From Cyanidioschyzon merolae (lineage: Eukaryota): 64,000 nt of DNA. Positions 997 through 58,019 of the stretch are shown piece by piece (position 1 is the stretch's first letter; every line of letters begins with the position of its first letter). The DNA lies in assembly GCA_000091205.1 (NCBI GenBank), contig AP006490.2. The stretch is one strand, 5' to 3'. Both the position numbers and the translations under genes were made by a program. The notes under the pieces are model-generated. The model made no database searches. It had not been told where the DNA came from and was given only the letters and a program-made list of their open reading frames with translations.

Positions 997-1236
997 GGGG
1001 GCAATCGAGGCAAGCTCGGCACCCGGAGGATCGTGCGAATAAATCATGACTCGCAAATGATAGATATGGAGATACATCTTTATTCATGAATGTATGACGC
1101 GCTGAAGCGCTCTCTAAGGAATCGCAATGACGCTACGTTACCATGGTGCATTTACACAGGCGTTGCGAAAGACATTGTTGCAGGCAATCGAGGCAAGCTC
1201 GGCACCCGGAGGATCATGCGAATGAATCATGATTCC
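997..1236. repeat. Dispersed direct duplication. Two copies of about 54 bp (997-1050 and 1183-1236) share caatcgaggcaagctcggcacccggaggatc[g/a]tgcgaat[a/g]aatcatga.
   Basis: Read directly from the sequence. The copies are near-identical and about 185 bp apart, in an ORF-poor region. Confidence 0.6.
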
Positions 1237-4991: not shown

Positions 4992-7079
4992 CTCCCAAAT
5001 CGTGTGAAATCAATCCGATACAGATATTATTCGTGTGGAGCGTTCGCGAGCGCGCGCCCCCTCTGAAACCACCAGCCGCTCTCGGGTATCGTCAGCGGGC
5101 TCTACGACGAGCACCCGAACCCTCTCAACAACTGAAGTAACACGTAGAACCAGTGCCTCTATCTTAAAAACACATTCAAAGTTGACGCTACGTTCTGCAG
5201 GAAGAGATCTGCGTTCTCGAGTTGAACAGTACGGATACCGCGTATGCTCCAGAAACGCGTACCGTGCTGCGTGTGCTGTTGCCGGGAACACGCACGCACG
5301 TTGGCGCGCACGCAGCGTCGAATGCACGCATACCAACAACAGATGGCGGCGGTGGCGGGTCCCGGCAACCGCGCATCATCCAAACTGGGACACTCTCCGC
5401 ATTTGTTGCTACAAAAGTGTCGGATTCGAGTAGAACACCGAATGGATCCTAGTGCTCATGCACTGAGATTGTTGCGAACCTGTTTATAGGCGTGCAGTCT
5501 CGATTCTCGACGTGCAGCGAGAAGGGCTTACGCATTCATGGGTCGTTTTCGGATGCTCGGGTGAGTCGACGCTGTGGCTCATTCGACGCTCTATTGGTGC
5601 AATTCTTGAGTCTAACGAGTATTGTTATCAAGAGGGATCATAAATTTCTAGAAGACGAGATCGTAAAATAACCGATTTCCTTAAAAAGCCCCATGCATAC
5701 AAGTCTCGGTGATTCTTCTTTTCTTACGAATTTTCCGCTCAAATCACACATGCTTCAAGTTTCCGGTGCTTCTGTTCCAGGGCAACACCGGGGTGCAGCA
5801 ATGCGCGCTTCTGGATTGGAGCGTGAAACGAGTCTACGTCATTTTTGGAAGACTTGTTCGCAAGATTACGCTGAGCGTTCACTGAAGTCGTCGCGCGAAA
5901 TCATCGATTCCGTTCGAAAGACAAATCCTGCTTTCTTTGTGCGTGTCGCCAGGACGTCATTCCACAGCAGCATAATATTTCACACAGGATATGCAACCAT
6001 AGGCTCGCTGTCACCTCTGTTTATGTGAAAAGAGGGTCTTGGCTGCGATTCGGACACGGGTCATCGCAGCGATCATCGCCAGTCGAGCGCGCGTCACGGG
6101 GTTGCACGCAGTGAGCCAGAAGCGGATCGGAATTTCTTGACCTGTTGCCGAACCTTGATTTTCCCTCAGGTACTTGTTCCATCATCGTGGACAACGTCGC
6201 GTCCCAAACATTCGATATCGAATTAGACAGCGTGCGCTTGCGTGTCCAGCGGATAGAGACCCCGCAGATGGGATCCCCTGCAAAACGCCCGTGGTCAAGG
6301 GGTACTGCATCGGTGCTAGCCTTCGTTGGCAATCAAGGGCATGTAACGAGCGACAGAGCAATCGTTCACGCGCATCGTGGCGGGCCTCGGAGCAGGAGTC
6401 GGTGTAGTAGCAGATATGGTGAACACACGGGAACAGCTTACCCCAATCACGTGTCGCCGCTGCACAAAGCGCAAGCAGGCTGTCAATGAAAAAGATAAAT
6501 CCCGCGACATCGCTACGTCGATGAGCCAGACCGCGTTCCAGAATGGATGACGAGTCATTCGGCCTCGAGGCAATTCATAACGATCGCCCTGGCGTCCAGC
6601 AGACAGCTCGTGCCATCGAATGAAGCTTACAACCAAAGTATGCGCGTAAACCTGGGCTCCGTTCAGGTTCTTCGACCAGCAACGACTCCCCGGTATCTGC
6701 TTCAGAACCACGGTCCAGTGTCGCTTCCGAGAACTGGCCTCGACGCAGCGCCAGTCCATCCGACAATGCTCAAGAAACACTGGCGGATAGTTGCGTGCGG
6801 TCCAGCGCGCTGTGCCCAGCAGCCGGGCAGCACCAAGACGCTCGCGAACCGAAAGCTGCTCCGCGCTTCCTTCACTTGCCGCTGTAGAGGAAAAGGTCGC
6901 ACATTTCCCAACAGTATAGAGTTTACGGTTCCTTCCAGGTACAGAGGTACGCTATGATCGCGGGGTTTACATACGGTGGACCGAAGCAGCCGCGTGCACC
7001 AGCGTTCCCATATTCATCAGGTCTGCCGTCGGTGCACGAGGTCACCGAGCCCACCACACGAACCAGCGCATGCTCTGCC

Positions 7080-7899: not shown

Positions 7900-8747
7900 C
7901 GTCGACGCTGCGCCAGCAAACGGCGCGCTGCTGTGCGCCGAGGAACGCGCTGTCCCGTATCTGGGGGGCAGAGGTGCGCACAATCGGAAGTTATGTACAA
8001 TATATAGCATAGTTATATATTTATGTCGCAGGCCAGCACACGGCGCGCTGCTGTGCGTCGAGGAACGCGCTGTCCCGTACCTGGAGGCAGAGGTGCGCAC
8101 AATAAAAAGTTATGTACAATATATTGCATAGTTATATATTTATGTCGCAGGCCAGCACACGGTGCGATGTTGTGCGTCAACGCGCTGTCCCGTACCTGGG
8201 GGCAGAGGTGCGCACAATCGGAAGTTATGTACAATATATAGCATAGTTATCTATTTATGTCGCAGGCCAGCACACGGCGCGCTGCTGTGCGCCGAGGAAC
8301 GCGCTGTCCCGTATCTGGGGGGCAGAGGTGCGCACAATCGGAAGTTATGTACAATATATAGCATAGTTATATATTTATGTCGCAGGCCAGCACACGGCGC
8401 GCTGCTGTGCGTCGAGGAACGCGCTGTCCCGTACCTGGAGGCAGAGGTGCGCACAATAAAAAGTTATGTACAATATATTGCATAGTTATATATTTATGTC
8501 GCAGGCCAGCACACGGTGCGATGTTGTGCGTCAACGCGCTGTCCCGTACCTGGGGGCAGAGGTGCGCACAATAAAAAGTTATGTACAATATATTGCATAG
8601 TTATATATTTATGTCGCAGGCCAGCACACGGCGCGCTGCTGTGCGTCGAGGAACGCGCTGTCCCGCACCTGGGGGGCAGAGGTACGCACAATAAAAAGTT
8701 ATGTACAATATATTGTATAGTTATCTATTTATGTCGCAGGCCAGCAT
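7900..8747. repeat. Tandem minisatellite of about 7 copies with a 112-120 bp period.
   Basis: The unit gtcgcaggccagcacacggcgcgctgctgtgcg[cc/tc]gaggaacgcgctgtcccgta[t/c]ctgg[g/a]ggcagaggtgcgcacaat[cgga/aaaa]agttatgtacaatatat[a/t]gcatagttatatatttat recurs at 7921, 8041, 8159, 8275, 8395, 8513 and 8631. One variant lacks gaggaa. Each unit carries an AT-rich, TATA-like core. Confidence 0.9.
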
Positions 8748-16328: not shown

Positions 16329-18339
16329 AGTGCCCAGCCGGGGTCCACGCTGCGACCCAGGTCCAGCTGCGTCGCTCCCGTCCAAGGGCGTTGTGCGTCG
16401 AAACGGCGGCGTTTCTAGGGACAGGCCCGCTGGCGCTTTCCCGTACGCTCGCTAGAGGCTTGCTTCTGGGGTGTGTTCCGCCCGCAGCTGGGTATCATGA
16501 AATGCTTTTTCGCCGTTTATAGCAGATGTGTTCAAAGTTCGTTCATTTGGAGAAAAAATATGAGAGAAAGGTATGATGATGATTGTGGGGGGATTCTTAT
16601 GGACCGTCATCGCCATGTACCTGGAAAAAAATCGGAAAAATCCTCTTCTCGCCGAGCATCGAGCGAAGAAGAGCAAGTGACGAGGTCGCAGACCGGACAC
16701 AGGCGAGAAAAGGTGTTTTTCCCGACTGGACAACGTCGAGAGTGTCGTGATACAGCGGGCATGAGTTCGAGAGATCCTCGCTAAGATGCGCTCAACCAGA
16801 GGCAGAGCACGCCTACGTTTTTTATGGCGAGCAGGCTTACATCCCACAAGCTTCAAGTTTTCCATCTTTTTCTTTCAAGGCAAAGCGCCGCGGTGTAGCA
16901 ATTGGTGCGGCTGGATCGACGCGGAAACGTTTGCCGCATTGACCCTAGACGACATGCATTCAAGCTTTGGGACCAAGTTCACTGAACCTGTCGTGCCAGC
17001 GTATCGATTATGTTCGAAAGCCAAGCAGTCCCGGCTTTCTGGGTATCGGTGAAAAGATATTCCATACCGGCATGCTTCCGCTCGTATGCTATGCTTCCAG
17101 AGGCTCCCGCTTCCTCTGCCCTCTCAGGAATGGACCTCAGGCTCGGACTGCGGTCATCAGAGCGAGCGCTTCCAGTGGAAAGCGTTTCATCGCTTTGCAC
17201 GAAGGGCGCATAGACGGATCGATACTGCCAGAGTCCGTCTTGAAGCTGGAGTCTAATTCCAGTCCACTTTTCGTCATGGATAAGATCGCATTCCAGAAAT
17301 TCTCCAATGAATGGAACAGCACGCGCTTGCGTGTGTTGTGGAGGGAGCACTCGCCAAGGAGATCGTCAAAAAAGAAGCCCGCGTTTGCAGGGCATCCGGC
17401 ACACGACACGAAGCAGGGCATCGGGCGGAGCCCTGTGTGTACTCGTCAAAAGAACGTACCGAGCGGTGAAGAAATCGTTCGCGCGCCCCCGGGCGCTGCG
17501 CCGAAGAGAGCGTACGCTGGACGGACGGCAACATCTTACCACGATCAAGAGGCAATGCTCGAAAGGGCGCACGAAACCCTTATTCAATGAAGATGAAGAT
17601 GGCAAGCGAAGCATAGATCGCACCCACCGGCTCTGCGTCAGATACGTGGGCAGCAACTAGAAGCCGCGGAATCGATAGGTAAACGCTGCCATCGACACGC
17701 TTGGACTGCGAAAAACGGAGCCGAAGCGTGAGCCCGGCGTCAGTAAATCCCGGAGATAAGAGATAGAGAGGAATAGCGAGCTGTCGCCTTGAAAGTACGC
17801 AGAGGCTAGTTCCAACGACAACGGAACCCGACCCGAACTTTATCGCACACGCACGAGGAGTCTATGTGAATGCGGTCCGTTTCATTCCAACAAGAGCGTC
17901 CTTGTCGCTGCGTTGCAACAGGCAAAGCGCATTGATACCGTCGACGCAGTGCGGTGCAATTTCTCTCAGGTATCACGAGCTAAATCCTTAAACAAAGCGC
18001 ATATCTCGTCGTCCGGGTTCTGAATCTCAAGTACCCATATCCGAAGATTGAAGATCAAAGCATGATTCGAGCTTGGTCAGCTTAAAGCGGCTGCGAGACA
18101 CCAGCATGCTACGCGGTCGGAAGCGCGCTACCAAAGCTCCCAGCACGCTCTGCGCACTACTGAAACACCCTCCGTGCCTTGCTCGCATTTCTGGCGGAGC
18201 AGGCGCCTGTCCAAACCAAGTTTCTCGGTGTGTCACATGCTGCTGCTGCTGCTGCTCACAGCGTTGTAGACGTGCTCGAACACAGGACGCAGCAGACGAA
18301 CCTCGCATGCCGTGGGCACAAGACGACATGCATAGTATG

Positions 18340-22225: not shown

Positions 22226-25200
22226 CTACGCTGACGTGGACTCGGAGCTATCACCATCGGCCTGCAACCGCATATGCGGACCGTTCCATACACAATGCAT
22301 CACCAGCTGCTGGTTATACTTCAAATCCAGCAGCAACTTGGGAGAAACGAGCAGCGTCTGCGGAAACTGAGACGAGGCGTCGTCCGAGACTTGTGCCTCT
22401 TCCATCATCATCTGGATGATCGCCCGTTCATTGTGAGGGTCCATCCCTTGGTTGATTTCATCGATCACGCGTATCGGAGGACGTGCATGACGCTGCATGG
22501 CCAACAAGAACAGCATGGTGGCGACCATTTTCTCCCCGCCCGAATGATGCTGTGCGGAGAGCGTTCGAAGCGGTTCATTCGCCCGAAACTGGACCTGAAT
22601 CCGCAACGCGAGGCGCCGAAGCTCCTCGTCCTCAAGCAGGTCCACTTGTCCCGCACAGTGCAGTTGCTGCAAAAGCCGGCTGAAAGCAAGCGATATGGAA
22701 CGAACCAGGGTACGGAGATCACGTAGCCATCGCTGGGATTCCTGGTGGAGCTCACGAAGCGCAGTGGCATGCTGCGCACGTTCTCGTTCTAGTTGCTGGC
22801 GAAGCGCTTCGATCTGTTGCTGCCGTCGCTCATACACCTGGACGACTTCCGCTGAAACGCTGGTGAGGGCATCGGCCCGAGCCTGTGCCCGAGCGATGCG
22901 TTCATCGAGCTCCTCGACGCTGGTCGGGAACTGCCACGCACGGAGCTGCTGTTGCAGCGCTGCTGTAAGCGGTGCGACGGCTTCGGCCTCCTGGCGTTTC
23001 TGGCGCATCCTGCTTTTGGCTTCATCGACGCGCTGACGTGCATCGTCACGTTGTTGTAGGAGGGTCTGCATTTCCAGTGCAGCTGTGGCAAGTGAACGCT
23101 CTCCTGCGCTCAGCAGCCGTTGCTTATCGAGCATGAGCCAGGTTCGCTCAACGAGGGCAGCGATGGCGGCCTGATGCTGTGCAAGTTGCTCGGCACCAGC
23201 AATGACCAGTTGCGCATAATGGTGCGCTGCTTCCGAGGCAGCTCGCTGCCACCGTTTTCGTTTCTCGTCGTCCTTTGCTGTGTTCTGCAAGTCGCGCGCA
23301 ATTGTCTCCATGAGTGAGCGCTGCATGGTCAGTCGTTGTTGCGCGTGGCGGAGTTGTTTCCGATCCTCGAGCAGGGAGGCGAGCTCCTGCTGTAGACTTC
23401 GCTCCTGAATGCGTAGCGCTTTCTCTTGCTCGGCTAGAGCGGCGGCTTGGGCTCGCCAATGTGCCCGCTGGGCATCTAATTGTGCGAGTTGGTCGTCCAG
23501 CTGCGCCACTTGTCGTTCATCAGGCATCGCGTAGAGGCCAGCTCGTCGCCGTTGGAGCGCCTCTACCCGAATCGAAACTGATTCCGCGTTGTAGCGCGAT
23601 AGACGACTCCGGTAGCCGTTCTGCGGCGTGAAGACCGCATACACGCGATGCTTGAGCGCGAGCTCGCGAACATGTCGACCAGCCTCGGCATCAGCGACTG
23701 CAATCAAATGAATTGGTACAGCGTCGGCGAGTGCTTTTTTCAAGTTTTCCGGTGCTTCGAAACAATCGCTGAGAAAGGCACGTACGCCAAGGGGCTCCAC
23801 GCTCGCCACCGGGGCCGGTGGAGCTAACGAAACATCGGGACGCACCAACGCTATCGTATTGACGCGCCAGTGGTTTCGCTGGGACTCTTGAAACACGATT
23901 CGTTCATCCTCGGGATGCTCGAAAACGAACACCACTTCCAGCCAGCCCCCTAGTACCGTTTCCAGCACATCGCTATAGAAAGCGTCGCTGGTGCGAACTT
24001 CCAGCGGCAACGGACCCCAGACTTGACCTCGAAAGCGTCCAGCTTCTCGTTGTGCAGTTATAAACTGGTAACACTCGATAACTTGACTGTGCGGATTCCG
24101 ACGCTGTATCAGCGCGAGTCTCTGCTGCCGAATGTTACGCAGGCGATCGCGTTGGTTCTGAAGCTCTTGGAACTGACTTTGCAACGGAGCCAGATGCTGC
24201 TGTTCCAGGTTGCGCATTGCATCACTTACCGAGAGCAAGCGTTCGGCGATTTGCTGTCGCTCCCGTCGCTTTTCTTCGATGCGCTTCTCGAGTTCCGCTT
24301 CTGTCCCAGTACGTTGCATGAGCGCTGCAAGCTCCGTTTCCAACCGCTCGACCTTGTGCTGGCATCCTTCATAGTTGCGCTTGCGCTCGGCAAGGTCCTG
24401 GGCAAGGCGTGCGAGCGCATCATTGGCCTCATCGAAACGCGCTAGCGCCTCGTTCATATCGGCCTGCTGTTGCCGAGCTGCAACCGATAGGTCACTCAGA
24501 ACTTGTTTCTGGGCATCACGCTCGTGTTGCAGTTGCAGCCACTCCTGCTGCATGGCCCGCAGAGGCGCACAGAGACGCTCCCAGTCTGCACATTTGGCCC
24601 GGTACACACGATCTACGGTTTTGAACGCGTCCCTTGCCGCAATTGCCTCTTGTCGGCAGATCTCATAGATGCAGTACGGTCGGTAGAGGCGCATCTGTTC
24701 GATCTCTTGCAGAAGCGCCTGTCGCTCCTCGTAAAAGCGAAGCTGTGCCTCGAGCGCCTCATTTTGGCGAATCCAGTCTGCAAGTCGAGCTTCATGCGCG
24801 GCAAGACGACTAGCCCAGGCTGCACCATTCGCTTGCTGCTCAGCAAGCGCCTCGAATGCCTCGAGCGCTGCACTGCCGAACACTGCTCGAATCGTTTGCC
24901 GCAAAAGCTCCGTGGGTGTGCACTCGACCAGCTCCGGCACGCGCTCCTGTGGCAGAAACGTGCAGATATTGTCTAGCTGGATATCGTAGTGCGCACAGAG
25001 CTCCTCAATGGTGCGTTTCGAGACCGACTCCCCGTCGAGGGTGAATCCGCCACGACCATCGCGACTAAAGGAGCGTGATATGCGCCGTCGCGTGCCACTG
25101 GCATCCGGGTCGAAGAGTTCTACGTCAATGCGCGCTCGTTCGCAGCCGTGCTTGATGTAGGAGCTGAGCACTGGTGCTCTCGACAAGAGCTCCAGCTTGC

Positions 25201-26494
25201 CTCCAAGTCCGATGCATATTCCTGCTACAATCGAAGACTTGCCGCTGCCATTGGGGCCCACCACGAGATTTAGGGTCCTCCCAGGCCTAATCTCCATTTC
25301 ATCGAACGCGAGAAAATGGTGCAGTCGGAGACGCAGGAGTTGACCTCGACGCCAGCCCGCTGTCTCTTGCCCGGAGTGACACGATTCGGTCACTGTTGCA
25401 GCAGGGTCCAGTTGAATATGGCGCTTATCGCGATGTAGTCGCGGCCGCATTGCTGTCGTCGCCGTCGCGGCATCCGCGGGGCCAGGTTGCGATAGCGCAG
25501 CGCTTCCATGTAGAGCACTGCCTGCTGCTCTGGATGGACCACTGGATGTGACCAATCCAGTGGCAACACGTAGCGCAGGAGCTGGCGATACCTTCCCTGC
25601 TGTGTCCGCGACCTGATCCGGGCCAGTCAGAGTCTCTGCAGTAGAGCAGCGTCCGAGAGCCGCGGGCAGCGCGCTCGCCTCGCTGTGCGCTTTCTCGTCA
25701 TGAACGTCGCTCTCATCGTCGCTGCTTGAGGCAGCAGTAAGCGCTCGTTGGCTCTCGGGCCCGGTGAACGTGTTCAGTGCGGGCGGTAACGTGCGTGTGC
25801 TGGCCGTTCGGGAGCACTGGGGTATCGACTCCGGTGAAAGTCGCTTCGAGGGCGACTCGCTGCTGTCGCGCTGTGCGCGCGAAGCTACCCGCACTACTGC
25901 TGCTTCTGCTGTTGCAGCGGCGGGAACAGTAGATCTACCGTATGTGCTCGATGCGCCCCTGAAAAATTGTTCAAGCTCTTCTTCGGGCACTTGTGCACGT
26001 GTCGATGACTTTGCCGCATTACCTCGCTTCCGAACGTTAAGACGTGTCTCGCGTGTTCGTGGTGATACCTGTGCTTCCGCCTGGGAGCATTCCGCGCCTG
26101 TTGCGACTTGCGTTTTCGATGTATGCTCTGCCGTCGAGCGCCCGCTTCGAGCGGTACCGTGCTTGTGGCCTTCTTGTATCGTTTCAGGGGCGGCGGATGT
26201 GGGTCGCTGCTTGCGTTTCGCAGTAGCTTGCCTGTCCGAGTCCGCCGCGGACGTCAGGTCGGCACGACTGCCGTAGTAAACATCTACCCTCTTATGGGCC
26301 GCATGCCTTTCAGGTTCTTTTCGGATGTGCGTTCGCTTTCGGGACGGTGAGGTCGCCACAAGAGCGGGCTCGTGATCGCTCTCCGAATCACTGCAGAAGG
26401 CAAAGGGATCATCGCTTGCCGCAGTGGGTGACTCAGCGTCGATGCCCCGTCGGAGGCTGCTTTCTCGCCTCTTTTGTTGCTTTACCCGAGGCAT
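22226..26494 (-). CDS. SMC5: SMC5 (structural maintenance of chromosomes 5) with an unusually long disordered N-terminal extension.
   Basis: The track ORF starts at GTG (26584), and the first ATG is at 26494..26492. Walker A region: GQLLRLRLHHFLAFDEMEIRPGRTLNLVVGPNGSGKSSIVAGICIGLGGK. C-terminal signature and D-loop: LSGGEKMVATMLFLLAMQRHARPPIRVIDEINQGMDPHNERAI. Long coiled-coil arms lie between. About 400 aa rich in Ser/Ala/Thr/Arg precede the Walker A motif. Confidence 0.85.
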   Translation of the reverse strand: MPRVKQQKRRESSLRRGIDAESPTAASDDPFAFCSDSESDHEPALVATSPSRKRTHIRKEPERHAAHKRVDVYYGSRADLTSAADSDRQATAKRKQRPTSAAPETIQEGHKHGTARSGRSTAEHTSKTQVATGAECSQAEAQVSPRTRETRLNVRKRGNAAKSSTRAQVPEEELEQFFRGASSTYGRSTVPAAATAEAAVVRVASRAQRDSSESPSKRLSPESIPQCSRTASTRTLPPALNTFTGPESQRALTAASSSDDESDVHDEKAHSEASALPAALGRCSTAETLTGPDQVADTAGKVSPAPALRVATGLVTSSGPSRAAGSALHGSAALSQPGPADAATATTAMRPRLHRDKRHIQLDPAATVTESCHSGQETAGWRRGQLLRLRLHHFLAFDEMEIRPGRTLNLVVGPNGSGKSSIVAGICIGLGGKLELLSRAPVLSSYIKHGCERARIDVELFDPDASGTRRRISRSFSRDGRGGFTLDGESVSKRTIEELCAHYDIQLDNICTFLPQERVPELVECTPTELLRQTIRAVFGSAALEAFEALAEQQANGAAWASRLAAHEARLADWIRQNEALEAQLRFYEERQALLQEIEQMRLYRPYCIYEICRQEAIAARDAFKTVDRVYRAKCADWERLCAPLRAMQQEWLQLQHERDAQKQVLSDLSVAARQQQADMNEALARFDEANDALARLAQDLAERKRNYEGCQHKVERLETELAALMQRTGTEAELEKRIEEKRRERQQIAERLLSVSDAMRNLEQQHLAPLQSQFQELQNQRDRLRNIRQQRLALIQRRNPHSQVIECYQFITAQREAGRFRGQVWGPLPLEVRTSDAFYSDVLETVLGGWLEVVFVFEHPEDERIVFQESQRNHWRVNTIALVRPDVSLAPPAPVASVEPLGVRAFLSDCFEAPENLKKALADAVPIHLIAVADAEAGRHVRELALKHRVYAVFTPQNGYRSRLSRYNAESVSIRVEALQRRRAGLYAMPDERQVAQLDDQLAQLDAQRAHWRAQAAALAEQEKALRIQERSLQQELASLLEDRKQLRHAQQRLTMQRSLMETIARDLQNTAKDDEKRKRWQRAASEAAHHYAQLVIAGAEQLAQHQAAIAALVERTWLMLDKQRLLSAGERSLATAALEMQTLLQQRDDARQRVDEAKSRMRQKRQEAEAVAPLTAALQQQLRAWQFPTSVEELDERIARAQARADALTSVSAEVVQVYERRQQQIEALRQQLERERAQHATALRELHQESQRWLRDLRTLVRSISLAFSRLLQQLHCAGQVDLLEDEELRRLALRIQVQFRANEPLRTLSAQHHSGGEKMVATMLFLLAMQRHARPPIRVIDEINQGMDPHNERAIIQMMMEEAQVSDDASSQFPQTLLVSPKLLLDLKYNQQLVMHCVWNGPHMRLQADGDSSESTSA

Positions 26495-27239
26495 AGAGCA
26501 GCTCTCGACGGAACTGGAATTTCGTGCAACCCTGCTTGGAACCAAGGGGCAAGACGTAGAAGCGTGCCAACGACGCTGCTGCACTGTCAGGCACGAGGTC
26601 GCGCCAGCTCCCCAGGCACCGCAAGCGTGACGCTGTGTGCCCGAACCTTGCGATCAGCACCCTCGTAAGCTATTCAGCGGCTGCAGTACCTGAAGTTCCT
26701 CTTTCTGGAGCGTTCCGTAAACACTCACTGATGATCAACCGCTTCGTTGGAGTAAGTTCCGCAGCAAAACGCGCCAAAACGGTGTGAACGTTTTGCGCGC
26801 CGCTTTTGGCGCGTTCTACGACACCTGCTGAAAAGTGCGCTGTGCTGTGCTGTGCAGCGCTGCATACGCATAGAGAAACTCAAAGAGCAGTGAGGTTTTG
26901 AATACCTCGATCAGCGTGCTTTTTGTTCTTATTGGTTCGTATGTCAGGTATTGAACGAATGGGGAGCACCCAGTCGATAGGGAAAATGTCAAGGAAAGCA
27001 CTTGTGCTGTCACAGTTAACGAACGAGACGTGTCTTTGTTCGACCTGTCAGTTATTCAACGATCTGCGGGGAGAGGAACCATCCTTCTCGTTGTCCTTGT
27101 TCTAGAAATCGTACACCCAAAATGGAACCCTTCAAACTCTATTCCTATGAGTTCGCTCTTGCCAATTAATTCCATTCTATACGTTCTTTAAGACCTAGTA
27201 CAAAACTAGTCACAGGATGCCGAGGTTCCGTACTGCTGC

Positions 27240-27740
27240 TTCGAAAGGTGATGGGTAGACGTGAACGCTCGAAGCAACCGGTATAATTGTATTGGAGACC
27301 GTGCCATATTGAATGACAAACTATTGGCTTCGTCCTGAAATACGAACGCTTCGAATATGGAAGAAAGATGCTCATCTACCTCGATGAGACTTCATTCGGG
27401 GCAAATGGTACACCCTAAGACGGGTACTCAGAGAGCGACAAAGCGCTGTCTGTCAAGGACGTATAAGCGAGCGCTCGGATAATATCAGCTCCTGAGGCGA
27501 TACTGTTATGGCATCGCGTGCCGGTCACGGAACGGGCAGGCTGGTTCTGCCCCAACTCCATTTTCGAAGCACTCTTCGTGGCTTCTCCTACCCAGCTTCT
27601 TCACCCTCGATCATTCACGAATCCGCTTCTCATCACTCAAAAGCGGTCACGGAGTTTGCAGTTGCGACTCTCGTTGAGCTGCTATTCGTCCGAGCAAGTC
27701 CTTTCTAGTACAATGCAGTCCAAGGTGTCTTCTCTGTCGT
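27240..27740 (+). mobile_element. Decayed Tc1/mariner- or IS630-type DDE transposase remnant (pseudogene), broken by frameshifts and stops.
   Basis: Piecing three frames together gives ...WLRPEIRTLRIWKKDAH / MLIYLDETSFGANG / HPKTGTQRATKRCLSRTYKRALG*YQLLRRYCYGIA...SWLLLPSFFTLDHSRIRFSS...GVCSCDSR*VELLFVRASPF*. This parallels the DDE_3 consensus vvflDEssf...ygwsprGqr...kr.svigAis...vlDNasiHks...ielLflPPYSPDLNPIE. The two Asp-containing blocks are about 78 codons apart, and the third acidic position appears mutated. Confidence 0.45.
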
Positions 27741-28514
27741 CAAAAGACATTTTTGAGCTCACAGTCCAATGGACGAGTCGTTCGTGCCCCTGGCACCATT
27801 CTGTACCGAAACCGGCCCTGGACTGCTCGGGTGCTCCTCTGTTCGTGCGCATGCTCGAGTAGAAAGACGCGCTGCGGTCTGTAGGTATGCTCGTGACGGA
27901 GGAGTCACGAAAATGTACCCAGGGATTCGGGAATAGACACAGAGATGGGGTGAGCTTCAGTCGTACCGTCCACAAAGAGCGTCTGAATCGCGAAGCGAAA
28001 AGGCTGTCGTGTCTGGCCACGATAGTCATATCGTCCCGCTTTTTCGAAGAGAATGCGATGAAACCAACGGGCTTCGAAGAGAAAGTTCCTTCCCAAGACA
28101 GGACCAGGAGATACCGGAAGAAAAGCATTTGTTCCAGAAATATACGTCAGAAAACGTTCTTCAAAGCCCTGCTGCTAAAACACATCGACGGAGAGAATCT
28201 TCCCATAGATGAGATGCAGGCTGCCACTTAAGGATCGCATAGGATCCTACTTTTGAAAGGCAAACCTTGCTTCGCTCGCCTAGCCGCACCTCGTTCTCCA
28301 ACTGTTCGTAGGAACTCTGGACACGGGGCTGCCAACTAACCACATCTCTCCGGGATTTCTCGATCAAACTCTCGAATGAAAACACACCTGATGCTCGGTA
28401 CAGAGGGCTACCATATGGCCTGATCGAAGGATGAACGATGCCCAGCAACGCCTCCCAGAATACCTTGACACTTCGCTGCTGCACACCTGCGGCCAGAATG
28501 GCCATAGCGCAGAT

Positions 28515-28972
28515 GCCATAAAGTATGATACCATCCTCAAAACCCATATACGGGGCAAACATTGTCGCCATAAAGTATGATACCATCCTCAGAACCCATA
28601 TACGGGGCAAACATTGTCGCCATAAAGTATGATACCATCCTCAGAACCCATATACGGGGCAAACATTGTCGCCATAAAGTATGATACCATCCTCAAAACC
28701 CATATACGGGGCAAACATTGTCGCCATAAAGTATGATACCATCCTCAAAACCCATATACGGGGCAAACATTGTCGCCATAAAGTATGATACCATCCTCAG
28801 AACCCATATACGGGACAAACATTGTCGCCATAAAGTATGATACCATCCTCAGAACCCATATACGGGGCAAACATTGTCGCCATAAAGTATGATACCATCC
28901 TCAAAACCCATATACGGGGCAAACATTGTCGCCATAAAGTCTGATACCATCCTCAGAACCCATATACGAGAC
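28515..28972. repeat. Tandem minisatellite of about 9 copies with a 52-bp period.
   Basis: The unit ccataaagtatgataccatcctca[g/a]aacccatatacggggcaaacattgtcg repeats perfectly at 52-bp intervals (for example at 28567 and 28619). The array lies inside the AT-richer ORF-free island. Confidence 0.9.
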
Positions 28973-31119
28973 AATGTTGAACGCCTCGTGATGCGTTCCA
29001 CGTGCTCGTTGTATGCTCAGGCTACCGGCGTAGAGAAAGGGAGCGCTGATGGGAGGAGTTCTGTCTCGTGTCGATAGAAGCAGTTGACGAGCTGGCTGTG
29101 GAGCAGGCATCGAGATGGTAGCGAACCTGGAAGAGATGCCGTCGCAGCGACAGCGACCGTTACTTCAGATCCTCCAAGCTCATGGTGTTAGGTGCCGGCC
29201 TCGGAGCTACGCAAGTCGTATCCCGAGGACGGTTCAAATGCGACTACTGCCCTGCACCTTGCGCTATATCGTGCTCCCGAACAGAGCCGCTCAATACAAA
29301 TCAGAGTTTCTCCCCGCACAGAAGCGCCCTCATATCCTCTGGCGTATATTCGATATGGTTTCCATACGTAGGATTGAGAATCATTATATCACTGTAAACA
29401 GTTTTGTGGTGTATGGGTGCCTCATTGCCCTGCGACTGATCTCAACGATTAGGTGCGTAGTATTGCCACAATGTCGCGAAAAGGATTGGCGGAGCTCGCT
29501 TACGGTACCGCGTTCATATGGGGAAAATCCAAATAAAATCTCAGACACAACGGTGACCGACGGAATATCAGTTCGCACGCACTTGGTTGCACATAGGCCA
29601 AAGTGGACCAACGAGACTCATTTTGAACTGTGCAACGTAGACGAAGAGCAAGACTCGGCGTTGCGCGAGGATCCTGGGTAGAACGGCGTCCTGGTCGTCG
29701 CCGTGCCTCTCTTTTTAATCCAGACTACACAGCCCAATACCCGACGGCAAACCAGTTGGAGATGCTCGGCTTTTCCAGACCTATGTATCAAGAGCGTCGA
29801 GCATGATTGACACCAGCAGGTATCACAAGAGAGGGAATCACGGCATCGTGACCCTGTTATACGCTCTGAGCACCGTATCGTACTGAAGTGTATACTTAGT
29901 ACACTCGATCCAGAGAGAACGAGAGCATCTATGTGGCACGTGCGGACGCACCTCGGCAGACGTGTTTGAAACCGCTCTGGGATCGCCAACGATTCGTTTG
30001 TACAAAGGCCAGAAGTCCGCTTTGTCAGCTTGTTCAATGCCTTGAGAAAGGAAATGCGCGATAAAACTCGTCATTCGGATGTAGTCTACCGCGCTGGACG
30101 TGTGGGCATGCGCACGAGTAGCACGCCATTCCCCTCTGACGAGAGCGTATAACGAGTGCAGGAATCGATACTGTGCGATTACCCCTGATGCCTTCGAGAC
30201 GACATACAACCATTACGAGCACAAACACAGGACGAAACAGGTCGAGCACAAGATCGTGAAACGGTTATGGGTGCATGACCTGGTGTACTGGAAGCTGACC
30301 GAACCTCAGATATTTGAGCAATCGAAGGTGAGAGGCTCGCTGTGGAGCGATTCCACCTGCAACAGAACGTGCAAGCACTTGCTGTTGCGCGACTTGATCG
30401 CTTCGCTCAAAATCAGGAAATATCTCAAGTCCTTCCACAATTTCTCCCGGCTTTTTGTCGAGCAAGCTTTCGATAAAATCACTGAATACTCGGCATGCGC
30501 TTGGTGCTCAAGTGCTGCACGCTTCCGGTGAAAATAAAACAGGTGGCCAGGAGAATCAACAATGGATTCCCCCCTGGAGCAAGGCATTAATTGGGTACAT
30601 TCAACGAGCCAGAAAAGCTGGAGCGCTGTTCATGTATCCGTCGGGGACGATTCTCGTGGGCACTGTTGAACCGTCCTGGTAACCTCCAAGTCTACCATAC
30701 GAGTTCAAGAAACATGATCAGGATCATTCCATTCCATCCACACGTTCAACATCGACAAGCTAGCTTGGGATGTTCAGTTTACAATCTAGAAGAGCGTAAA
30801 CTATCCTGGATATAAAACTAGAACCTGACAACACCACACAAACAATGCTTTATGGAGTGCGCTTTTGCCAGATCTTGTCGCTTTGGAAGACTAGTCGCCG
30901 ATGTCCATTTCCGTTCGCAGCGCGTCAAGCAAAGAGCAGCAGACGTTTTCGGTACGGCGTTACGGAACGTTTCTTTGCTGGTCAGCTGGGCGGCAGACAT
31001 CAATCACCCTGTGACTGCAAATAGGCAGAGTTGCAGCGGGGAAGCACACGCGCTTCCACCTACAGGAGACCACAGACGGGACTCCCCTGAGGCTGTACGA
31101 GCCTTTGTACGAGTTCCGC

Positions 31120-34100
31120 ATGCAATCGGACGATGCAACGGAGCTCGGAAAGCACGCCTCTCACCAAGATCGAGAAACGCACTCGCCTGAGGATTCAGCT
31201 ACAAAAGCGCGTGCTCTGGGTACAGCAGCCGACCCGCTTGAGCGCTACAGGGCCCTGCTTAGCGACTCGCGAAGCTCGAGTTCCCGTCCGCCAGAGCTGC
31301 CTCTATTGCAGGAGCTCTATGGCGACGTTCACGCTGCCCTGGTAGACGTATGTTGTACGTTTCTAGACCGACTCGCCCGACTGCTCCAGGACGAGGCAGC
31401 TACGAGTGCGGCGCTCGGCACTGGCGAGGCGCTGCTACAGCACAACATAGCTTTACTCACCTCCGTTCGAGAGGCTCGCGCTGTGCTCCTGGATCCGGCA
31501 CAGGGCAGCCTCTGGTTTCCTTTGCGAAAAGCCTATGCGTACAGGTCTCGCCTTGCAGAGGCCGAAAAATGCTATCAGATAGCTGTGCAGGCGGAACGTA
31601 TCGCGAGACACCTCGCAACCCAAGACGTTGTCCACGACTTGACCTCTTTTGGCCGCACCCTCGCGTCATTACACGAGTCATTGGAGGAACTGCGACGCTT
31701 TCCGAGCCTCAAGGCGGCCACAGAAGAACTGTTTTCGCTCGAGGAGCGTTCCTGGTCACAGTTTCAGCAGGCCTGGCGAAAACAGCTGGCACGCTGGCTA
31801 GCCGAAATGCAACACCTGCCGAGCACAAACTTAGAAGAAACGGCTGTGAAATCCTATAACTGGCCTGGCATCGAAGTGTTCTTCCTTCGATGTCAGAGAC
31901 AGGCGGACTTTGTTGAGATTGTAGCCCGCCTTACCGCCGAAAGCATCGAGCAGCGGTTGCGAACAAACGCTGCCGTTGCACGAGTGGAAGAAGCGCTCAC
32001 CACGCTTGCCACCGAGAGCGCTCAACCAGGAAGACAATTGCGGCTCGTGTGGGGTCCGGGAGCGCTTCTCGCGGACTCGATGACAGCGACGTGGATACTG
32101 GGCGGCAAGGAGCAGCTCGAAGCGCTCCAGACGCTGGCAACGCATGTCCCCAGTGCATTAGAGCAATATCAGGAGCAGCTGCAGACGTATAGCAGGCTCT
32201 GGCAAGAACTGCTGGAGACCTCTGCTCCGGCAGCAGCGAGGGCGCCTGCTCAAAGTCCGACGACTGATACCGACTTCAAACGAGGCACCAGTGCGTCTGT
32301 GAGCTCCTCGCCGCTCGATGAGCGACAGCAGGCAGCGGCGAGCGACGCCTCCTCTGCGCAACAGCCGGATGCCTCCATATCCACCCGTCATGCTGCTCTG
32401 GTAACGATGCTCTTTCGAATGTCCTTATCACGTCTCTGGAATGAATTCACCCGCCTCGCGTCCCTGGATACTTTCCGTTCACAGCAAATCCTGGAAGCGT
32501 CTACAGCGCCAGACGGGTTCGCTCTAACCCCAGTGGCTGCGCTTGCTTCGCTCACACAGACGCTGTACCGCTCCGGTACCGAGACGCTGCGTTGTTTGTG
32601 GCACACGCTGGTGGTAACTCCAACCGACACGTCAACTGTGTCGACAGTTCGCAACGCACTGCTAGAAAAGGAACTGATTCGCGTATACGATCTCTGTCTG
32701 ATGCCACGCTTGGTTGTCGCTATGAGCGCAGGTCACGGTCTGCTGGCACCGCAAGTCCTCATGGAGGCGCCGCTTCATCCAGAGGGAACCGAAGATATCC
32801 CCGAGGTAGCTGCACTCCAGTCGCTTGCCTCAACTGGTGATGCATTCGCTATGCACTCGCCACGAACGCTCGAAGCACTCTGTGTCGAGATGCGGGCCTT
32901 ATGCGAGCAGTCTGCACAGCAGACGTGCTCGGAACGCACGCAGAACATGCGGAAAGCGACCCGTATCCTGAAGAAAATGACTGGGTTTTCAGTGAGCCTA
33001 CGTTTGGCATTTGGGCGTCGACTCGAACAGCAGTGGAAGGAGTGGCTTCCCCAGGACTGCGGTCTCAGTCTACTAGGTTCACTGCTTCCGGCAATGCAGG
33101 ATGAAGTGGTGCGTTTTCAGACATGGTTTACTGAGGCTTTCTGCAGCATGCTGCATCTAGTGCGCGTACAGCGTGCCGAGCCGTCCACCACAGTGCCTAG
33201 TCTATCACCGGGGTTGACGTCGAACGGTAGCATCGCCGAAGAGCGCTTGTCGGCGAACGATGCGAGTGACTACTCTCGAGCATTCCAGACCGTCTTCGAG
33301 GCGCTCCACGAATTGTTGAGCTGGACGCTAGATGTCGTAGCGTCCGTTGCACATCAAAAAGACGCCACACGACAGGTGCAGGAGACACAGCGGCTTGCAG
33401 AGCTTGTTCAGCTACTTGAAGACCAGCCGCTCGCTTTGCAGCGGGTTTCAGAGAGTGCCGTGTCTGCGTCAGCGTCACCGCTCGCAGTCCTCTGGGCACT
33501 AGCTCGGGATCCTGCGCTTCGGGACACCTACTTTGCAGACTGGAACGACACCGAGCACCCAGTAAGCCGTTCCGTAGAGCAGCTCGCCAGGAGTGTCGTG
33601 CCGGCGCTGGTCCAGGCTCGAACACTCATTCGGGCGCTTGGCGAAGCGCTCTTCGCGGAGACGCTGCTGCGGCTTGAAGCGACACTGCGACTTCCTGGCG
33701 TACACCCGGAACCCGACTACGATACCTCGCTGGATCTTCCGGCACTCTCCGAGCATCCCAGTGAAGCGATGATTGCCTTCGGGGAACGTCTGTTGGCCTT
33801 ACCATCGCTGCTGGAACCGGTATTGTCCAATGTGCGGAGTGTTGTGCATTTGCGTTGCCTGACACTGCCCCTGTCGCTGCCCGACGATACCGCGATGCAG
33901 AGCAACTGGGAGGCTCATATGCAGCGTATCGTTGGGCAAGTATACCGCGATTCGAGGGATATGGAACGATCGCCACGGGGATCTGGTACGAGCATCGAAC
34001 TCGCCACTGCAGCGCGATCCTGGCTGCTCTGTATGCTGACACCGCTCACCGAGAGGGCGTTTAGGGCATTGCGGGGCGCAGAGACTGAACCCTCGTTATC

Positions 34101-34185
34101 GCAGCGATCAAGGCAGGTTTCCGTAGATCGGACGTACCTCGAGCAAGTGCTTGGACGTCTCGGCTATTTCGGAAACACACGATGA
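31120..34185 (+). CDS. Large hypothetical protein of about 1020 aa, predominantly alpha-helical and Leu-rich. No family was recognised.
   Basis: A 3-kb uninterrupted ORF. The track start 31105 is TTG, and the first ATG is at 31120 (MQSDDATELG...). Leu/Ala/Glu-rich heptad-like composition runs throughout. A central low-complexity Ser/Ala/Pro segment is present (APAAARAPAQSPTTDTD...). The general look of a tethering-complex or scaffold subunit is an inference only. Confidence 0.45.
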   Translation: MQSDDATELGKHASHQDRETHSPEDSATKARALGTAADPLERYRALLSDSRSSSSRPPELPLLQELYGDVHAALVDVCCTFLDRLARLLQDEAATSAALGTGEALLQHNIALLTSVREARAVLLDPAQGSLWFPLRKAYAYRSRLAEAEKCYQIAVQAERIARHLATQDVVHDLTSFGRTLASLHESLEELRRFPSLKAATEELFSLEERSWSQFQQAWRKQLARWLAEMQHLPSTNLEETAVKSYNWPGIEVFFLRCQRQADFVEIVARLTAESIEQRLRTNAAVARVEEALTTLATESAQPGRQLRLVWGPGALLADSMTATWILGGKEQLEALQTLATHVPSALEQYQEQLQTYSRLWQELLETSAPAAARAPAQSPTTDTDFKRGTSASVSSSPLDERQQAAASDASSAQQPDASISTRHAALVTMLFRMSLSRLWNEFTRLASLDTFRSQQILEASTAPDGFALTPVAALASLTQTLYRSGTETLRCLWHTLVVTPTDTSTVSTVRNALLEKELIRVYDLCLMPRLVVAMSAGHGLLAPQVLMEAPLHPEGTEDIPEVAALQSLASTGDAFAMHSPRTLEALCVEMRALCEQSAQQTCSERTQNMRKATRILKKMTGFSVSLRLAFGRRLEQQWKEWLPQDCGLSLLGSLLPAMQDEVVRFQTWFTEAFCSMLHLVRVQRAEPSTTVPSLSPGLTSNGSIAEERLSANDASDYSRAFQTVFEALHELLSWTLDVVASVAHQKDATRQVQETQRLAELVQLLEDQPLALQRVSESAVSASASPLAVLWALARDPALRDTYFADWNDTEHPVSRSVEQLARSVVPALVQARTLIRALGEALFAETLLRLEATLRLPGVHPEPDYDTSLDLPALSEHPSEAMIAFGERLLALPSLLEPVLSNVRSVVHLRCLTLPLSLPDDTAMQSNWEAHMQRIVGQVYRDSRDMERSPRGSGTSIELATAARSWLLCMLTPLTERAFRALRGAETEPSLSQRSRQVSVDRTYLEQVLGRLGYFGNTR

Positions 34186-37312: not shown

Positions 37313-37689
37313 CACTGAACAGTAGCGCATTGCTCGAATAAGCCCATGATAGGCGTCTTCCATGGATGATGTATATCGTTCGTACGTAATTGCACGAGCG
37401 CAGATACACTGAACAGTAGCGCATTGCTCGAATAAGCCCATGATAGGCGTCTTCCATGGATGATGTATATCGTTCGTACGTAATTGCACGAGCGCAGATA
37501 CACTGAACAGTAGCGCATTGCTCGAATAAGCCCATGATAGGCATCTTCCATGGATGATGTATATCGTTCGTACGTAATTGCACGAGCGCAGATACACTGA
37601 ACAGTAGCGCATTGCTCGAATAAGCCCATGATAGGCATCTTCCATGGATGATGTATATCGTTCGTATGTAATTGCACGAGCGCAGATAC
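37313..37689. repeat. Four tandem copies with a 94-bp period.
   Basis: The unit cactgaacagtagcgcattgctcgaataagcccatgataggc[g/a]tcttccatggatgatgtatatcgttcgta[c/t]gtaattgcacgagcgcagata starts at 37313, 37407, 37501 and 37595. It lies in the divergent intergenic region between the 35006..36559 gene and the cytochrome-b5-reductase-like gene. Confidence 0.9.
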
Positions 37690-46757: not shown

Positions 46758-48065
46758 CTGCTGCACACCTTTCGCAGACAGGGTGCTGTCGGTGTGCGGA
46801 CTTGATCACCACGAGTTGCATACATCCTTGCAGGGTTGGTATTCCCGCCACGAGGCGACTGCTAGAGCACGCGCTCGTTCTAACGAAACGGGAGCGCTAT
46901 CGTGAGCGCACGCGATCCAACATCATCGAGAGCGTTTGTCGGAGCGCCTTCCGTCAGCATGCGCTCCGCTACCCCCTGTAAAGTACCTAACTCATGCCGC
47001 CCCAAATCGTCCATCGTTGGCTATGAGCAGACAGCGCGTCCCATGTGGAGCTTTCTCGGAAAGATCCGGCTCTGCCCAGCTCTCGCGTTCGTGAGATCGT
47101 CCTCGGAGGCATCGAATGAATCTGCGCTTTTCGTCGTCACCGCCTGGACGGATCGCGCTCAGCACAGTCCTTGATATTGCTACATTCAGCGCACTTACGA
47201 TTCTCGTCGTGTCAAAAAAGCGCTTCCGTTTGCAAGACAAATCTTCCTTTCTGTGTGGCCGTCGATACACCGACATTCGACAGCGGCAGCACCATTCGTT
47301 ACATAGGATATGCTCCCAGAGGCTCCCATATCTTCGGTCTGCATGGAAACGCGTCTAGGACTCGGAATTCAGTCCACGTAGTGATTGCATCCAGTGGAGC
47401 GGCTGTCACTGTACAGCACGACGGATGCGTCGATGACTCTAGATTTTCGAACTTGATCTCTCTTCTGGACTTTCATTTCGATACTTTAAAATCTTCATCA
47501 TGAACGACCCCGCGTTCTGCAAAATAATATTCCATTTGGAAAAGAGCGTACGCTTGCACGTCAAGCGGACAGCGTACTCGCCGAGCGCACTCTCCAGCGG
47601 AAGCCGCCATGCTTCGGATACGGCTCCGGAAGCAGAAACGAGGAGGGTTGTCGCGGATAGCCTACTGTAACTGCCAAGAGAAGGTACCGAACGGGTCACA
47701 TCTCCCTATATGACAGCGCTCAGGAGTGGAAGCGGCCTGAAGGATAACCGCACAGATATCTAAGCGCAGTTCCGCGTCACCGCCGTGAAGTCCACGCTGA
47801 TGCTCGATACAAAGCGGAAGAAAACAGCAAGCATATCAAGGATTGCATGTATCGTCTCCACTTGAAATGAGTCGACAATAACCAGAAGCAACGAAATCAG
47901 GATTGGAACGTTCCCATCAACATACCTCGACTGCCTGCATCGGATGTGAACACAAGGTAGACACTGATGTCTCTTACGCTCGAGACAAAAATAAAAAAGG
48001 AAGCAGTGGCAGAAAAAACGCACCCAAGCTAGTGTTGATGACAAAATTGGCAAGAGATCCAAACA

Positions 48066-49270
48066 TGAGCGTATACGCCCACGATAAGCCCTTGCACCCG
48101 TCGCATACGATCCTCCTGCCAGTTGATCCAGAGGTAAATCCGCATCTTCGAAGGATCAAGGCACGAGAGCGTATACACCCACGATAAGCCCTTGCAACCG
48201 TCGCATACGATCCTCCTGCCAGTTGATCCAGAGGTAAATCCGCATCTTCGAAGGATCAAGGCACGAGAGCGTATACGCCCACGATAAGCCATTGCACCCG
48301 TCGCATACGATCCTCCTGCCAGTTGATCCAGAGGTAAATCCGCATCTTCGAAGGATCAAGGCACGAGAGCGTATACGCCCACGATAAGCCATTGCAACCG
48401 TCGCATACGATGCTCCTACCAGTTGATCCAGAGGTAAATCCGCATCTTCGAAGGATCAAGGCACGAGAGCGTATACGCCCACGATAAGCCATTGCACCCG
48501 TCGCATACGATCCTCCTGCCAGTTGATCCAGAGGTAAATCCGCATCTTCGAAGGATCAAGGCACGAGAGCGTATACGCCCACGATAAGCCATTGCAACCG
48601 TCGCATACGATGCTCCTACCAGTTGATCCAGAGGTAAATCCGCATCTTCGAAGGATCAAGGCACGAGAGCGTATACGCCCACGATAAGCCATTGCACCCG
48701 TCGCATACGATGCTCCTACCAGTTGATCCAGAGGTAAATCCGCATCTTCGAAGGATCAAGGCACGAGAGCGTATACGCCCACGATAAGCCATTGCACCCG
48801 TCGCATACGATGCTCCTACCAGTTGATCCAGAGGTAAATCCGCATCTTCGAAGGATCAAGGCACGAGAGCGTATACGCCCACGATAAGCCATTGCAACCG
48901 TCGCATACGATGCTCCTGCCAGTTGATCCAGAGGTAAATCCGCATCTTCGAAGGATCAAGGCACGAGAGCGTATACGCCCACGATAAGCCATTGCACCCG
49001 TCGCATACGATGCTCCTACCAGTTGATCCAGAGGTAAATCCGCATCTTCGAAGGATCAAGGCACGAGAGCGTATACGCCCACGATAAGCCATTGCAACCG
49101 TCGCATACGATGCTCCTGCCAGTTGATCCAGAGGTAAATCCGCATCTTCGAAGGATCAAGGCACGAGAGCGTATACGCCCACGATAAGCCATTGCAACCG
49201 TCGCATACGATGCTCCTACCAGTTGATCCAGAGGTAAATCCGCATCTTCGAAGGATCAAGGCACGAGAGC
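48066..49270. repeat. Twelve tandem copies with a 100-bp period.
   Basis: The unit gcacgagagcgtatacgcccacgataagcc[a/c]ttgca[c/a]ccgtcgcatacga[t/c]gctcct[a/g]ccagttgatccagaggtaaatccgcatcttcgaaggatcaag repeats with exact 100-bp phase from 48066 to 49270. The 78-aa MAYRGRIRSRALILRR... ORF family on the minus strand is generated by this repeat. Confidence 0.95.
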
Positions 49271-49312
49271 GCGAAATCGCGCGCCTCTGCCGTTGATCCA
49301 GCGCGGGATTTC
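49262..49312. repeat. GC-rich inverted repeat (hairpin-capable palindrome) at the end of the 100-bp array, about 70 bp upstream of the RAD21 ATG.
   Basis: agcgcgaaatcgcgcgc - ctctgccgttgatccag - cgcgggatttcgcgcgct. gcgcgaaatc is the reverse complement of gatttcgcgc. Confidence 0.6.
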
Positions 49313-57832: not shown

Positions 57833-58019
57833 GAACAGGAGCGCGTTCACTGTGGACCTCAAGGAGCGCCTCAGTAAGCAACCTCTGTCCTACGTTCATC
57901 GCCGCTCGGTAGCGCTCGTCGACGTCGTGGCGCGCTGGACACGTCGCACTTCCGCTGGCCGATCGCGGGCGACATCCGTGGCGCAGCGCACGCATTGCGT
58001 ATGGTGCGTGTTGATCTTC

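Follow-up and report, generated by a model that had tools for sequence, protein, structure and literature searches.

The stretch of Cyanidioschyzon merolae DNA analysed here (64,000 nucleotides of contig AP006490.2, chromosome 8; "the window" below) contains a gap of 4.6 kb without long open reading frames (ORFs), and this gap very probably holds one dead transposon of the Tc1/mariner/IS630 type (DDE_3, DD34E) with a passenger Fanzor1 gene. Seven ORFs of the window were identical to annotated proteins of C. merolae 10D (CMH249C, CMH252C and CMH258C among them). The genes of the window have no introns, lie on alternating strands and have a G+C content of 56-61%. The gap is bordered by an SMC-family gene on one side and a gene of 1021 amino acids (aa) on the other, and since these two genes diverge it constitutes their shared 5' intergenic region. 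Searches of the gap for Rfam families and tRNAs found none. A preliminary description of the locus had reported a decayed Tc1/mariner- or IS630-type DDE transposase at 27240-27740 within an AT-rich, gene-free island, and had taken this island for the only stretch of the window that breaks the gene order. The G+C content of the gap is 0.47-0.53 against 0.56-0.61 in its flanks, so that "AT-rich" applies relative to the flanks only, and other ORF-poor intergenic stretches of lower G+C were found at 37-38, 41-43, 47-49 and 58-59 kb.

We built a transposase family hidden Markov model (HMM) from six intact metagenomic relatives of about 300 aa and aligned it to the window. Two segments of the plus strand were matched, both without gaps. 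The first, which runs from the helix-turn-helix (HTH) region through the first catalytic Asp, gave 57.4 bits (independent E-value, i-E, 2.3e-19) over 179 residues with five in-frame stops; the second, the C-terminal catalytic part, gave 48.7 bits (i-E 1e-16) over 78 residues with two. The first segment is read in the frame whose start mod 3 = 2 and the second in the frame with mod 3 = 1, after one frameshift near 27553-27574. The family HMM alignment thus needs two frames and a single frameshift where three reading frames had been proposed, and the fossil contains seven in-frame stops in total. A search of the stitched translation against a database of 5.8 billion proteins matched intact DDE_3 proteins of about 300 aa (E=3.7e-16, 37% identity over 81% of the query), and the transposase of L004, one of the closest intact relatives, matched the window in tblastn at E=2e-23. 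A block of 10 residues in the C-terminal part of the fossil, GVFSVVKRHF, is identical in intact relatives. Within the first segment the HTH region (family residues 26-110) aligns to 27038-27290; the matches of the intact relatives themselves to HTH_Tnp_Tc3_2 and HTH_23 are sub-threshold, and no match to family residues 1-25 was detected in the window with the family HMM. The resemblance to DDE transposases greatly exceeds what chance would give, and these alignments support the assignment of 27038-27786 as a decayed, inactive Tc1/mariner/IS630-type DDE_3 (DD34E) transposase. The identification made in the preliminary description was therefore sound, and the fossil is larger than the interval given for it.

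The catalytic residues of the fossil could be located in the same alignments. The first catalytic Asp is kept at 27383-27385 (LIYLDETSF), the second is replaced by His at 27616-27618, where "SIIHESASHHS" aligns to "vlldnvafhhs", and the catalytic Glu is replaced by Gln at 27721-27723. The fossil consequently has D, H and Q at the positions of the D-D-E triad and is a relic of a DD34E enzyme. The spacing is that of the intact relatives, with 77 codons from the first Asp position to the second and 35 codons from there to the Glu position, the latter distance lying within the ungapped segment. Two of three catalytic residues replaced, together with the stops and the frameshift, bear out the earlier judgement that the transposase is dead and not active. 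Five peptides had been quoted in its favour, and all of them are present at the places given; only LIYLDETSF and VELLFVRASPF are read in the homologous frames, whereas WKKDAH, HPKTG...ALG and TLDHSRIRFSS are off-frame reads of the same DNA. The second Asp that was seen in TLDHSRI is thus a frame artefact, the homologous codon encoding His, although the Asp-Asp distance had been given correctly.

The intact relatives of the transposase match Pfam DDE_3 at 97 bits (E=1.1e-27), and D141, D218 and E253, the DD34E arrangement, are invariant across 22 sequences. More than 300 relatives were found at E<=1e-10, nearly all of them metagenomic, while among 185,579 prokaryotic species genomes a motif-based scan returned one 2.7-kb contig of a metagenome-assembled genome, the subfamily being essentially absent there. 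Members of the transposase family occur on giant-virus-like contigs, namely L015 (an 88.7-kb scaffold with Prim-Pol and ResIII/DEAD helicase neighbours) and the IMG/VR contigs L018, L019 and L020 (one of them a giant-virus metagenome-assembled genome, GVMAG), of which L018 and L020 also carry the partner gene described below. In L004-L006, which contain the three closest intact transposases, an ORF of about 600-730 aa follows 150-230 bp downstream on the same strand. This partner ORF had no Pfam match, and a single-sequence search of the PDB with the 702-aa partner protein of L004 gave no match either, so that a family profile was needed. The profile made from 28 members of the partner-protein family matched the solved Fanzor1 proteins 9cf0 (E=1.9e-16), 8gkh (5.2e-12) and 9cer (2.1e-6). 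The family has an invariant D422/E593/D662 triad, which includes the C-terminal "NRDxNAAxNI" motif, and one member has the TnpB zinc-ribbon Pfam domain. Because of the match to solved Fanzor1 proteins, the invariant triad and the zinc-ribbon of that member, we identify the partner gene as Fanzor1. Fanzor1 is the eukaryotic homologue of TnpB, an RNA-guided RuvC nuclease.

The pair of transposase followed by Fanzor1 was present in 8 of the 10 loci examined. These loci span 21-65% G+C, a range that suggests wide horizontal spread. The relatives end in imperfect terminal inverted repeats (TIRs) of about 30 bp, flanked by TA, with the consensus TA(C/T)AC(T/C)...AAT(A/T)ATG(R)(R)ACACC; the element of L004 extends from about 380 to 3838, and L016 and L017 share a common element, their sequences diverging directly past the right-hand TA. 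Just 3' of the Fanzor1 stop codon the relatives contain a conserved non-coding block (L004 3635-3838, L006 3357-3449, L005 3516-3560) with a hairpin that appears to co-vary (GAGAGTT..AACTCTC vs AGAGGAT..ATTCTCT), and this block is a candidate scaffold of a guide (omega) RNA. No similarity to the block was detected by alignment in the window at 30400-30720, and Rfam gave no match there.

The partner protein of L004 matched the gap downstream of the transposase fossil in four collinear tblastn segments on the plus strand, and the 28-member profile confirmed four segments (i-E 7e-18, 2.7e-15, 6.7e-9 and 1e-3). The coordinates of these and of all other features are collected in the table below. 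The segment 28224-28553 terminates in "AIKYDTILKTHIR", which is aligned to the conserved "GAxKYxTNLKNH" motif. Further downstream, the Asp of the RuvC-I motif is kept ("EDPG", Asp at 29670-29672), the Glu of RuvC-II is replaced by Ala ("PDAFETT") and the "RD" of RuvC-III is kept ("LLLRDLIASLKIRKY"); the full D...E...RD motif is thus no longer present in the fossil. The CMe-1 protein, encoded in the same genome and belonging to the same Fanzor1 subfamily, matched the C-terminal part of the fossil (30121-30429) at 2.7e-10. An ORF of 188 aa reported by gene callers at 29115-29681 overlaps the central Fanzor1 segment. At least five frame segments now make up the fossil, with five stops inside its aligned parts, and by its alignment to the profile it occupies 28079-30429 collinearly. 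What had been described as a gene-free island around the transposase is accordingly made up of the rest of the same element with the fossil of a Fanzor1 gene, which the preliminary description had missed.

The Fanzor1 alignment is interrupted by a tandem array of 52-bp units, which is placed exactly at the break. Every unit re-encodes "AIKYDTILRTHIR", corresponding to the "GAxKYxTNLKNH" motif, and past the array the coding alignment picks up again with the same motif. Judged from this arrangement, the array is a minisatellite amplified from dead Fanzor1 coding sequence. The number of copies is 8.7 in strain 10D, 2.8 in the syntenic contig L007 (7559-7706) and fewer than 2 in L001 (about 17586-17681), both of them assemblies of environmental strains, a difference that could reflect either a variable-number repeat or assembly collapse.

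Table. Features of the window, with coordinates, strand and supporting alignments
Feature	Coordinates	Strand	Details
Probable two-gene element, minimum extent	27038..30429	+	transposase then Fanzor1; collinearity and length
Transposase fossil, N-terminal and central (HTH region through first catalytic Asp)	27038..27574	+	HMM family residues 26-204
Transposase fossil, C-terminal catalytic part	27553..27786	+	HMM family residues 197-274
Fanzor1 fossil, N-terminal basic region, "VKACLL" motif	28079..28219	+	profile 6-52, i-E 0.0012 within the gap; collinear with stronger segments
Fanzor1 fossil	28224..28553	+	profile 54-158, 22.3 bits, i-E 6.7e-9, 4 in-frame stops
52-bp tandem array	28515..28968	.	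TRF: 8.7 copies, 98% identity; tblastn matches in each unit
Fanzor1 fossil, resumption past the array ("VAIKSDTILRTHIRDNVERL")	28928..29017	+	profile 145-174, i-E 0.17, weak alone but collinear
Fanzor1 fossil, central, up to RuvC-I motif	29241..29711	+	profile 237-383, 51.9 bits, i-E 7e-18, 1 in-frame stop
Fanzor1 fossil, C-terminal RuvC-II / zinc-ribbon / RuvC-III	30121..30429	+	profile 509-589, 43.4 bits, i-E 2.7e-15
Match to L004 partner residues 83-193	28215-28550	+	tblastn E=2e-11
Match to L004 partner residues 177-217	28910-29038	+	tblastn E=0.03-0.05
Match to L004 partner residues 278-434	29241-29708	+	tblastn E=3e-15
Match to L004 partner residues 519-673	29969-30426	+	tblastn E=6e-15
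Quoted peptide WKKDAH	27358-27375		
Quoted peptide LIYLDETSF	27371-27397		
Quoted peptide HPKTG...ALG	27411-27479		
Quoted peptide TLDHSRIRFSS	27603-27635		
Quoted peptide VELLFVRASPF	27673-27705		
SMC-family gene	22226-26494	minus	start at 26494; SMC_N 85 bits
1021-aa gene	31120-34185	plus	start at 31120; without Pfam match
Second fossil, first transposase piece		minus	transposase residues 3-182
Second fossil, second transposase piece		minus	transposase residues 195-227 ("IVDNIAFHVSSI")
Second fossil, first Fanzor piece		minus	Fanzor profile 468-515
Second fossil, second Fanzor piece		minus	Fanzor profile 560-590 ("NRDLSASINILRLL")

The two fossils together have the layout of one intact element. 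Their span, measured between transposase residue 26 and Fanzor residue 673, is 3392 bp, or about 2990 bp after subtraction of approximately 400 bp of extra array units, and the same interval in L004 is 3034 bp. By extrapolation from the relatives, the original ends would have been situated near 26.9 kb and 30.6-30.7 kb. The low G+C content of the island is explained as well, since the element itself is low in G+C (0.45-0.48 in the intact elements of L004-L006). The two fossils might instead derive from independent insertions, that of a mariner-type transposon and that of a separate Fanzor1-only element of the CMe-1A kind, which came to be adjacent by chance. No common ends can be defined for both fossils, and the Fanzor1-only CMe-1A repeat is abundant in C. 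merolae, with about 150 copies (PMC3627910) or 253 copies amounting to about 5% of the genome (PMC1955436), as such an origin would lead one to expect. We consider it improbable, because strand, order, spacing and overall length of the fossils are those of the intact composite elements, because a blastn comparison of the CMe-1A consensus with 26.5-31.2 kb gave no match, its only similarity in the window consisting of short pieces elsewhere, and because the Fanzor fossil was matched better by the L004-type protein (four segments, to 3e-15) than by CMe-1 (one segment, 2.7e-10).

Several observations weigh against a single transposon with a Fanzor1 passenger. Neither TIRs nor a TA target-site duplication was recognisable in the window by an inverted-repeat scan, a motif search or nhmmer: the consensus TIR motif, with up to three mismatches allowed, had 0 matches in the window, and an nhmmer profile of six aligned termini did not match at the expected positions. 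The claim of a single insertion consequently follows from order, strand, spacing and length and not from common ends. An inverted pair at 27162-27178 and 30578-30594 (82% over 17 nt) was rejected, as its left arm lies within the transposase alignment and similar pairs arise by chance; the nhmmer terminus scan lent no support to an end candidate that had been picked by eye at about 26.94 kb. The preliminary description had proposed a check against Pfam profiles, and DDE_3 was indeed matched by stitched two-frame translations of the transposase fossil, but at 14.1 bits (E=0.044) and 12.5 bits (E=0.14), below the cutoff of 28.6, so that this check is inconclusive when taken alone; Pfam scans of the raw whole six-frame translations had no matches. 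A sub-threshold score is to be expected, because the pseudogene is heavily mutated. Furthermore, the function of Fanzor1 and its guide RNA are taken over from literature on other Fanzor1 proteins. Finally, the 3' part of the Fanzor fossil differs from L001 at 8/1461 positions and is no more divergent than coding DNA, these counts being too small to demonstrate neutrality.

Comparison between strains was confined to close relatives. The syntenic contigs recovered (L001-L003 and L007-L014) all come from C. merolae-like strains that are about 99% identical and already carry the fossil, and for this reason neither an empty site nor a deeper comparison was available. Between the window and L001, the transposase part showed 11/749 differences and three flanking coding regions showed 6/1495, 11/3066 and 6/1554. 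Small as they are, these counts agree with a relaxation of constraint on the transposase part. An ORF of 237 aa (protein P0100) is found at 27518-28231 on the plus strand in other C. merolae-like strains; two stops of 10D are absent there, and the ORF is 114 aa long in 10D. It runs from the off-frame C-terminal region of the transposase into the N-terminal Fanzor fossil, and the cluster to which it belongs comprises 22 sequences from 20 contigs.

Gene callers reported ORFs in this region in several strain assemblies, and strains share about 99% identity here, as might be the case for a functional host gene or for a domesticated ORF derived from the transposase or Fanzor1 (the 188-aa ORF at 29115-29681, or the 237-aa ORF across 27.5-28.2 kb). 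Such a gene is very unlikely. The ORFs are fossil fragments or off-frame reads, and P0100 reads the C-terminal region of the transposase out of frame; catalytic residues are gone, stops and frame changes occur throughout, and the accession numbering suggests that GenBank has no protein annotated here. The 99% identity reflects very close strains, flanking non-coding DNA being equally similar. Least credible of all is a derivation of the stretch from an integrated piece of a giant virus, the transposon having arrived within viral DNA and not by its own transposition: close family members do occur on giant-virus-like contigs (L015; IMG/VR, including the GVMAG), Bao & Jurka 2013 (PMC3627910) likewise associate mariner-Fanzor1 elements with giant viruses, and the island is low in GC, but the two element genes and the array cover about three quarters of the gap and the remaining ~0.5 kb on each side gave no viral gene signal in the HMM and ORF scans performed.

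A single mariner-type transposon with Fanzor1 as passenger would have had the following history. In its living form, going by the intact relatives, the element probably encoded a transposase of about 300 aa, with an N-terminal HTH and a D-D-E core, upstream of a Fanzor1 of about 700 aa on the same strand, in a unit of about 3.5 kb whose ends would have been inverted repeats of about 30 bp flanked by TA. From established knowledge of the two families, the transposase is expected to excise the unit and reinsert it at TA sites, and the persistence of the element may be aided by Fanzor1 together with a guide RNA. The copy in C. merolae entered the shared 5' intergenic region and then became fixed. 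It decayed mainly through point substitutions and small insertions or deletions, by which both genes were broken and catalytic residues replaced, and 52 bp of the dead coding sequence of Fanzor1 later expanded into the minisatellite. The element is now non-functional spacer DNA.

The transposase was not the only mobile-element signature in the window, as had been stated; further transposase/Fanzor1 fossils and CMe-1A pieces were found. A second fossil at 42483-41365 on the minus strand, in a low-GC intergenic stretch, is more decayed and has the appearance of a transposase-Fanzor1 unit with an internal deletion. It consists of four collinear pieces, each of them weak (local i-E 6e-4 to 0.26). 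A third fossil with the same layout at 47261-47693 (+) comprises transposase residues 140-213 (local i-E 7e-4), after which Fanzor profile 471-520 is weakly matched. DNA at 5888-6242 (+) resembles parts of the copies at 41.8 kb and 47.2 kb, with an identity of 69-71% (E=7e-9 and 2e-9). Together these copies point to an old transposase-derived repeat family with at least three further copies in the 64 kb. Short CMe-1A-like pieces, 70-90% identical, were found at 1875-2029 (-), 16500-16575 (+), 53661-53723 (-) and 58730-58902 (+); three of the four come from the region of the 5' end (TE-N2_CMe), and 16500-16575 matches positions 834-908 of the consensus.

Other repeats of the window included a tandem array at 48067-49271 (period of ~100 bp, ~1.2 kb in length, 96-98% identity) and a tandem repeat at about 37336-37653 (period of ~94 bp), both in low-GC intergenic DNA. 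Dispersed duplications were seen at 7912-8038 / 8620-8746 and 58018-58159 / 58630-58771, with 91% and 96% identity, respectively. Between the SMC-family gene and the transposase fossil, ~270 bp upstream of the SMC start codon, we noticed by eye an imperfect palindrome at 26765-26815 (AAAACGCGCCAAAAC ... CTTTTGGCGCGTT).

The element described here is of a known kind, Fanzor1 repeats had been reported from this genome before, and since the element does nothing itself its interest is modest. It links three facts, namely the few bacterial-like transposase relics of C. merolae, its abundant Fanzor1 repeat of unknown class, and the intact mariner-Fanzor1 elements of environmental eukaryotes and giant viruses. 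In doing so it suggests a route of Fanzor1 into and within the minimal C. merolae genome, and that class II relics have been under-counted there. As this locus shows, the low-GC "islands" that separate genes in C. merolae can be explained as transposon fossils, which bears on the annotation of promoters and intergenic regions, and such fossils seed minisatellites whose copy number appears to vary between strains. More speculatively, and with the balance of probability somewhat against it, the autonomous ancestor type of the C. merolae Fanzor1 repeats may have left a full-length relic at this locus, the Fanzor1 lineage having entered and spread on DD34E mariner-type transposons that were possibly delivered by giant viruses. 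If this conjecture were true, the low-GC intergenic islands of this supposedly transposon-poor genome should contain unrecognised mariner-Fanzor relics in numbers well above the eight class II elements on record.

These elements can be compared with systems described before, although in the searchable literature we found no paper other than those cited here that links Fanzor or mariner elements to C. merolae. Fanzor1 was defined by Bao & Jurka 2013 (PMC3627910), who showed that Mariner/Tc1 elements are frequent carriers of it. Among their examples, PUl-1 and PUl-2 from Pythium ultimum resemble the intact relatives in having a mariner-type transposase of about 300 aa upstream of Fanzor1 on the same strand, in a unit of 3.5-3.8 kb with TIRs of 24-33 bp and TA flanks. 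The PUl-1 transposase is homologous to that of the intact relatives (29% identity, E=1e-19); to the window copy, which is dead and has unrecognisable ends, it is distant and without a direct match. The PGv-1-type viral elements, compared by description only, likewise link mariner-type transposases to Fanzor1 in giant-virus genomes, and relatives of the window fossil also lie on giant-virus-like contigs; PGv-1 differs in having three genes, a GIY-YIG nuclease among them. With respect to Pfam DDE_3 (PF13358), the intact relatives are clear members, while the fossil scores below the threshold and has retained the order of the blocks as well as the D-77-D-35-E spacing. The NRDxNA motif of the partner family aligns with that of the solved Fanzor1 proteins of Parasitella parasitica (9cf0), Spizellomyces punctatus (8gkh) and Guillardia theta (9cer). 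This relationship is remote, and the window copy lacks the RuvC-II Glu and an intact reading frame.

Within C. merolae itself, Nozaki et al. 2007 (PMC1955436) recorded their 253 interspersed copies as a "WSV486-like" repeat, which is evidently CMe-1A, and only eight transposase-related "class II" elements, weakly similar to bacterial transposases. CMe-1A (PMC3627910) has a consensus of 3169 bp, its copies are ~80% identical, it has neither a transposase nor TIRs, and its description in 2013 assigned it to no class. Between the CMe-1 protein and the partner protein of the intact relatives, identity is 43% over about 690 residues. The window element, unlike CMe-1A, has a DDE_3 transposase fossil upstream of Fanzor1 and no DNA similarity to the 3169-bp consensus. 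Because of this lack of similarity, and of its better match to the transposase-linked proteins, we assign it to the same Fanzor1 subfamily but to a lineage of its own, one that bears a transposase.

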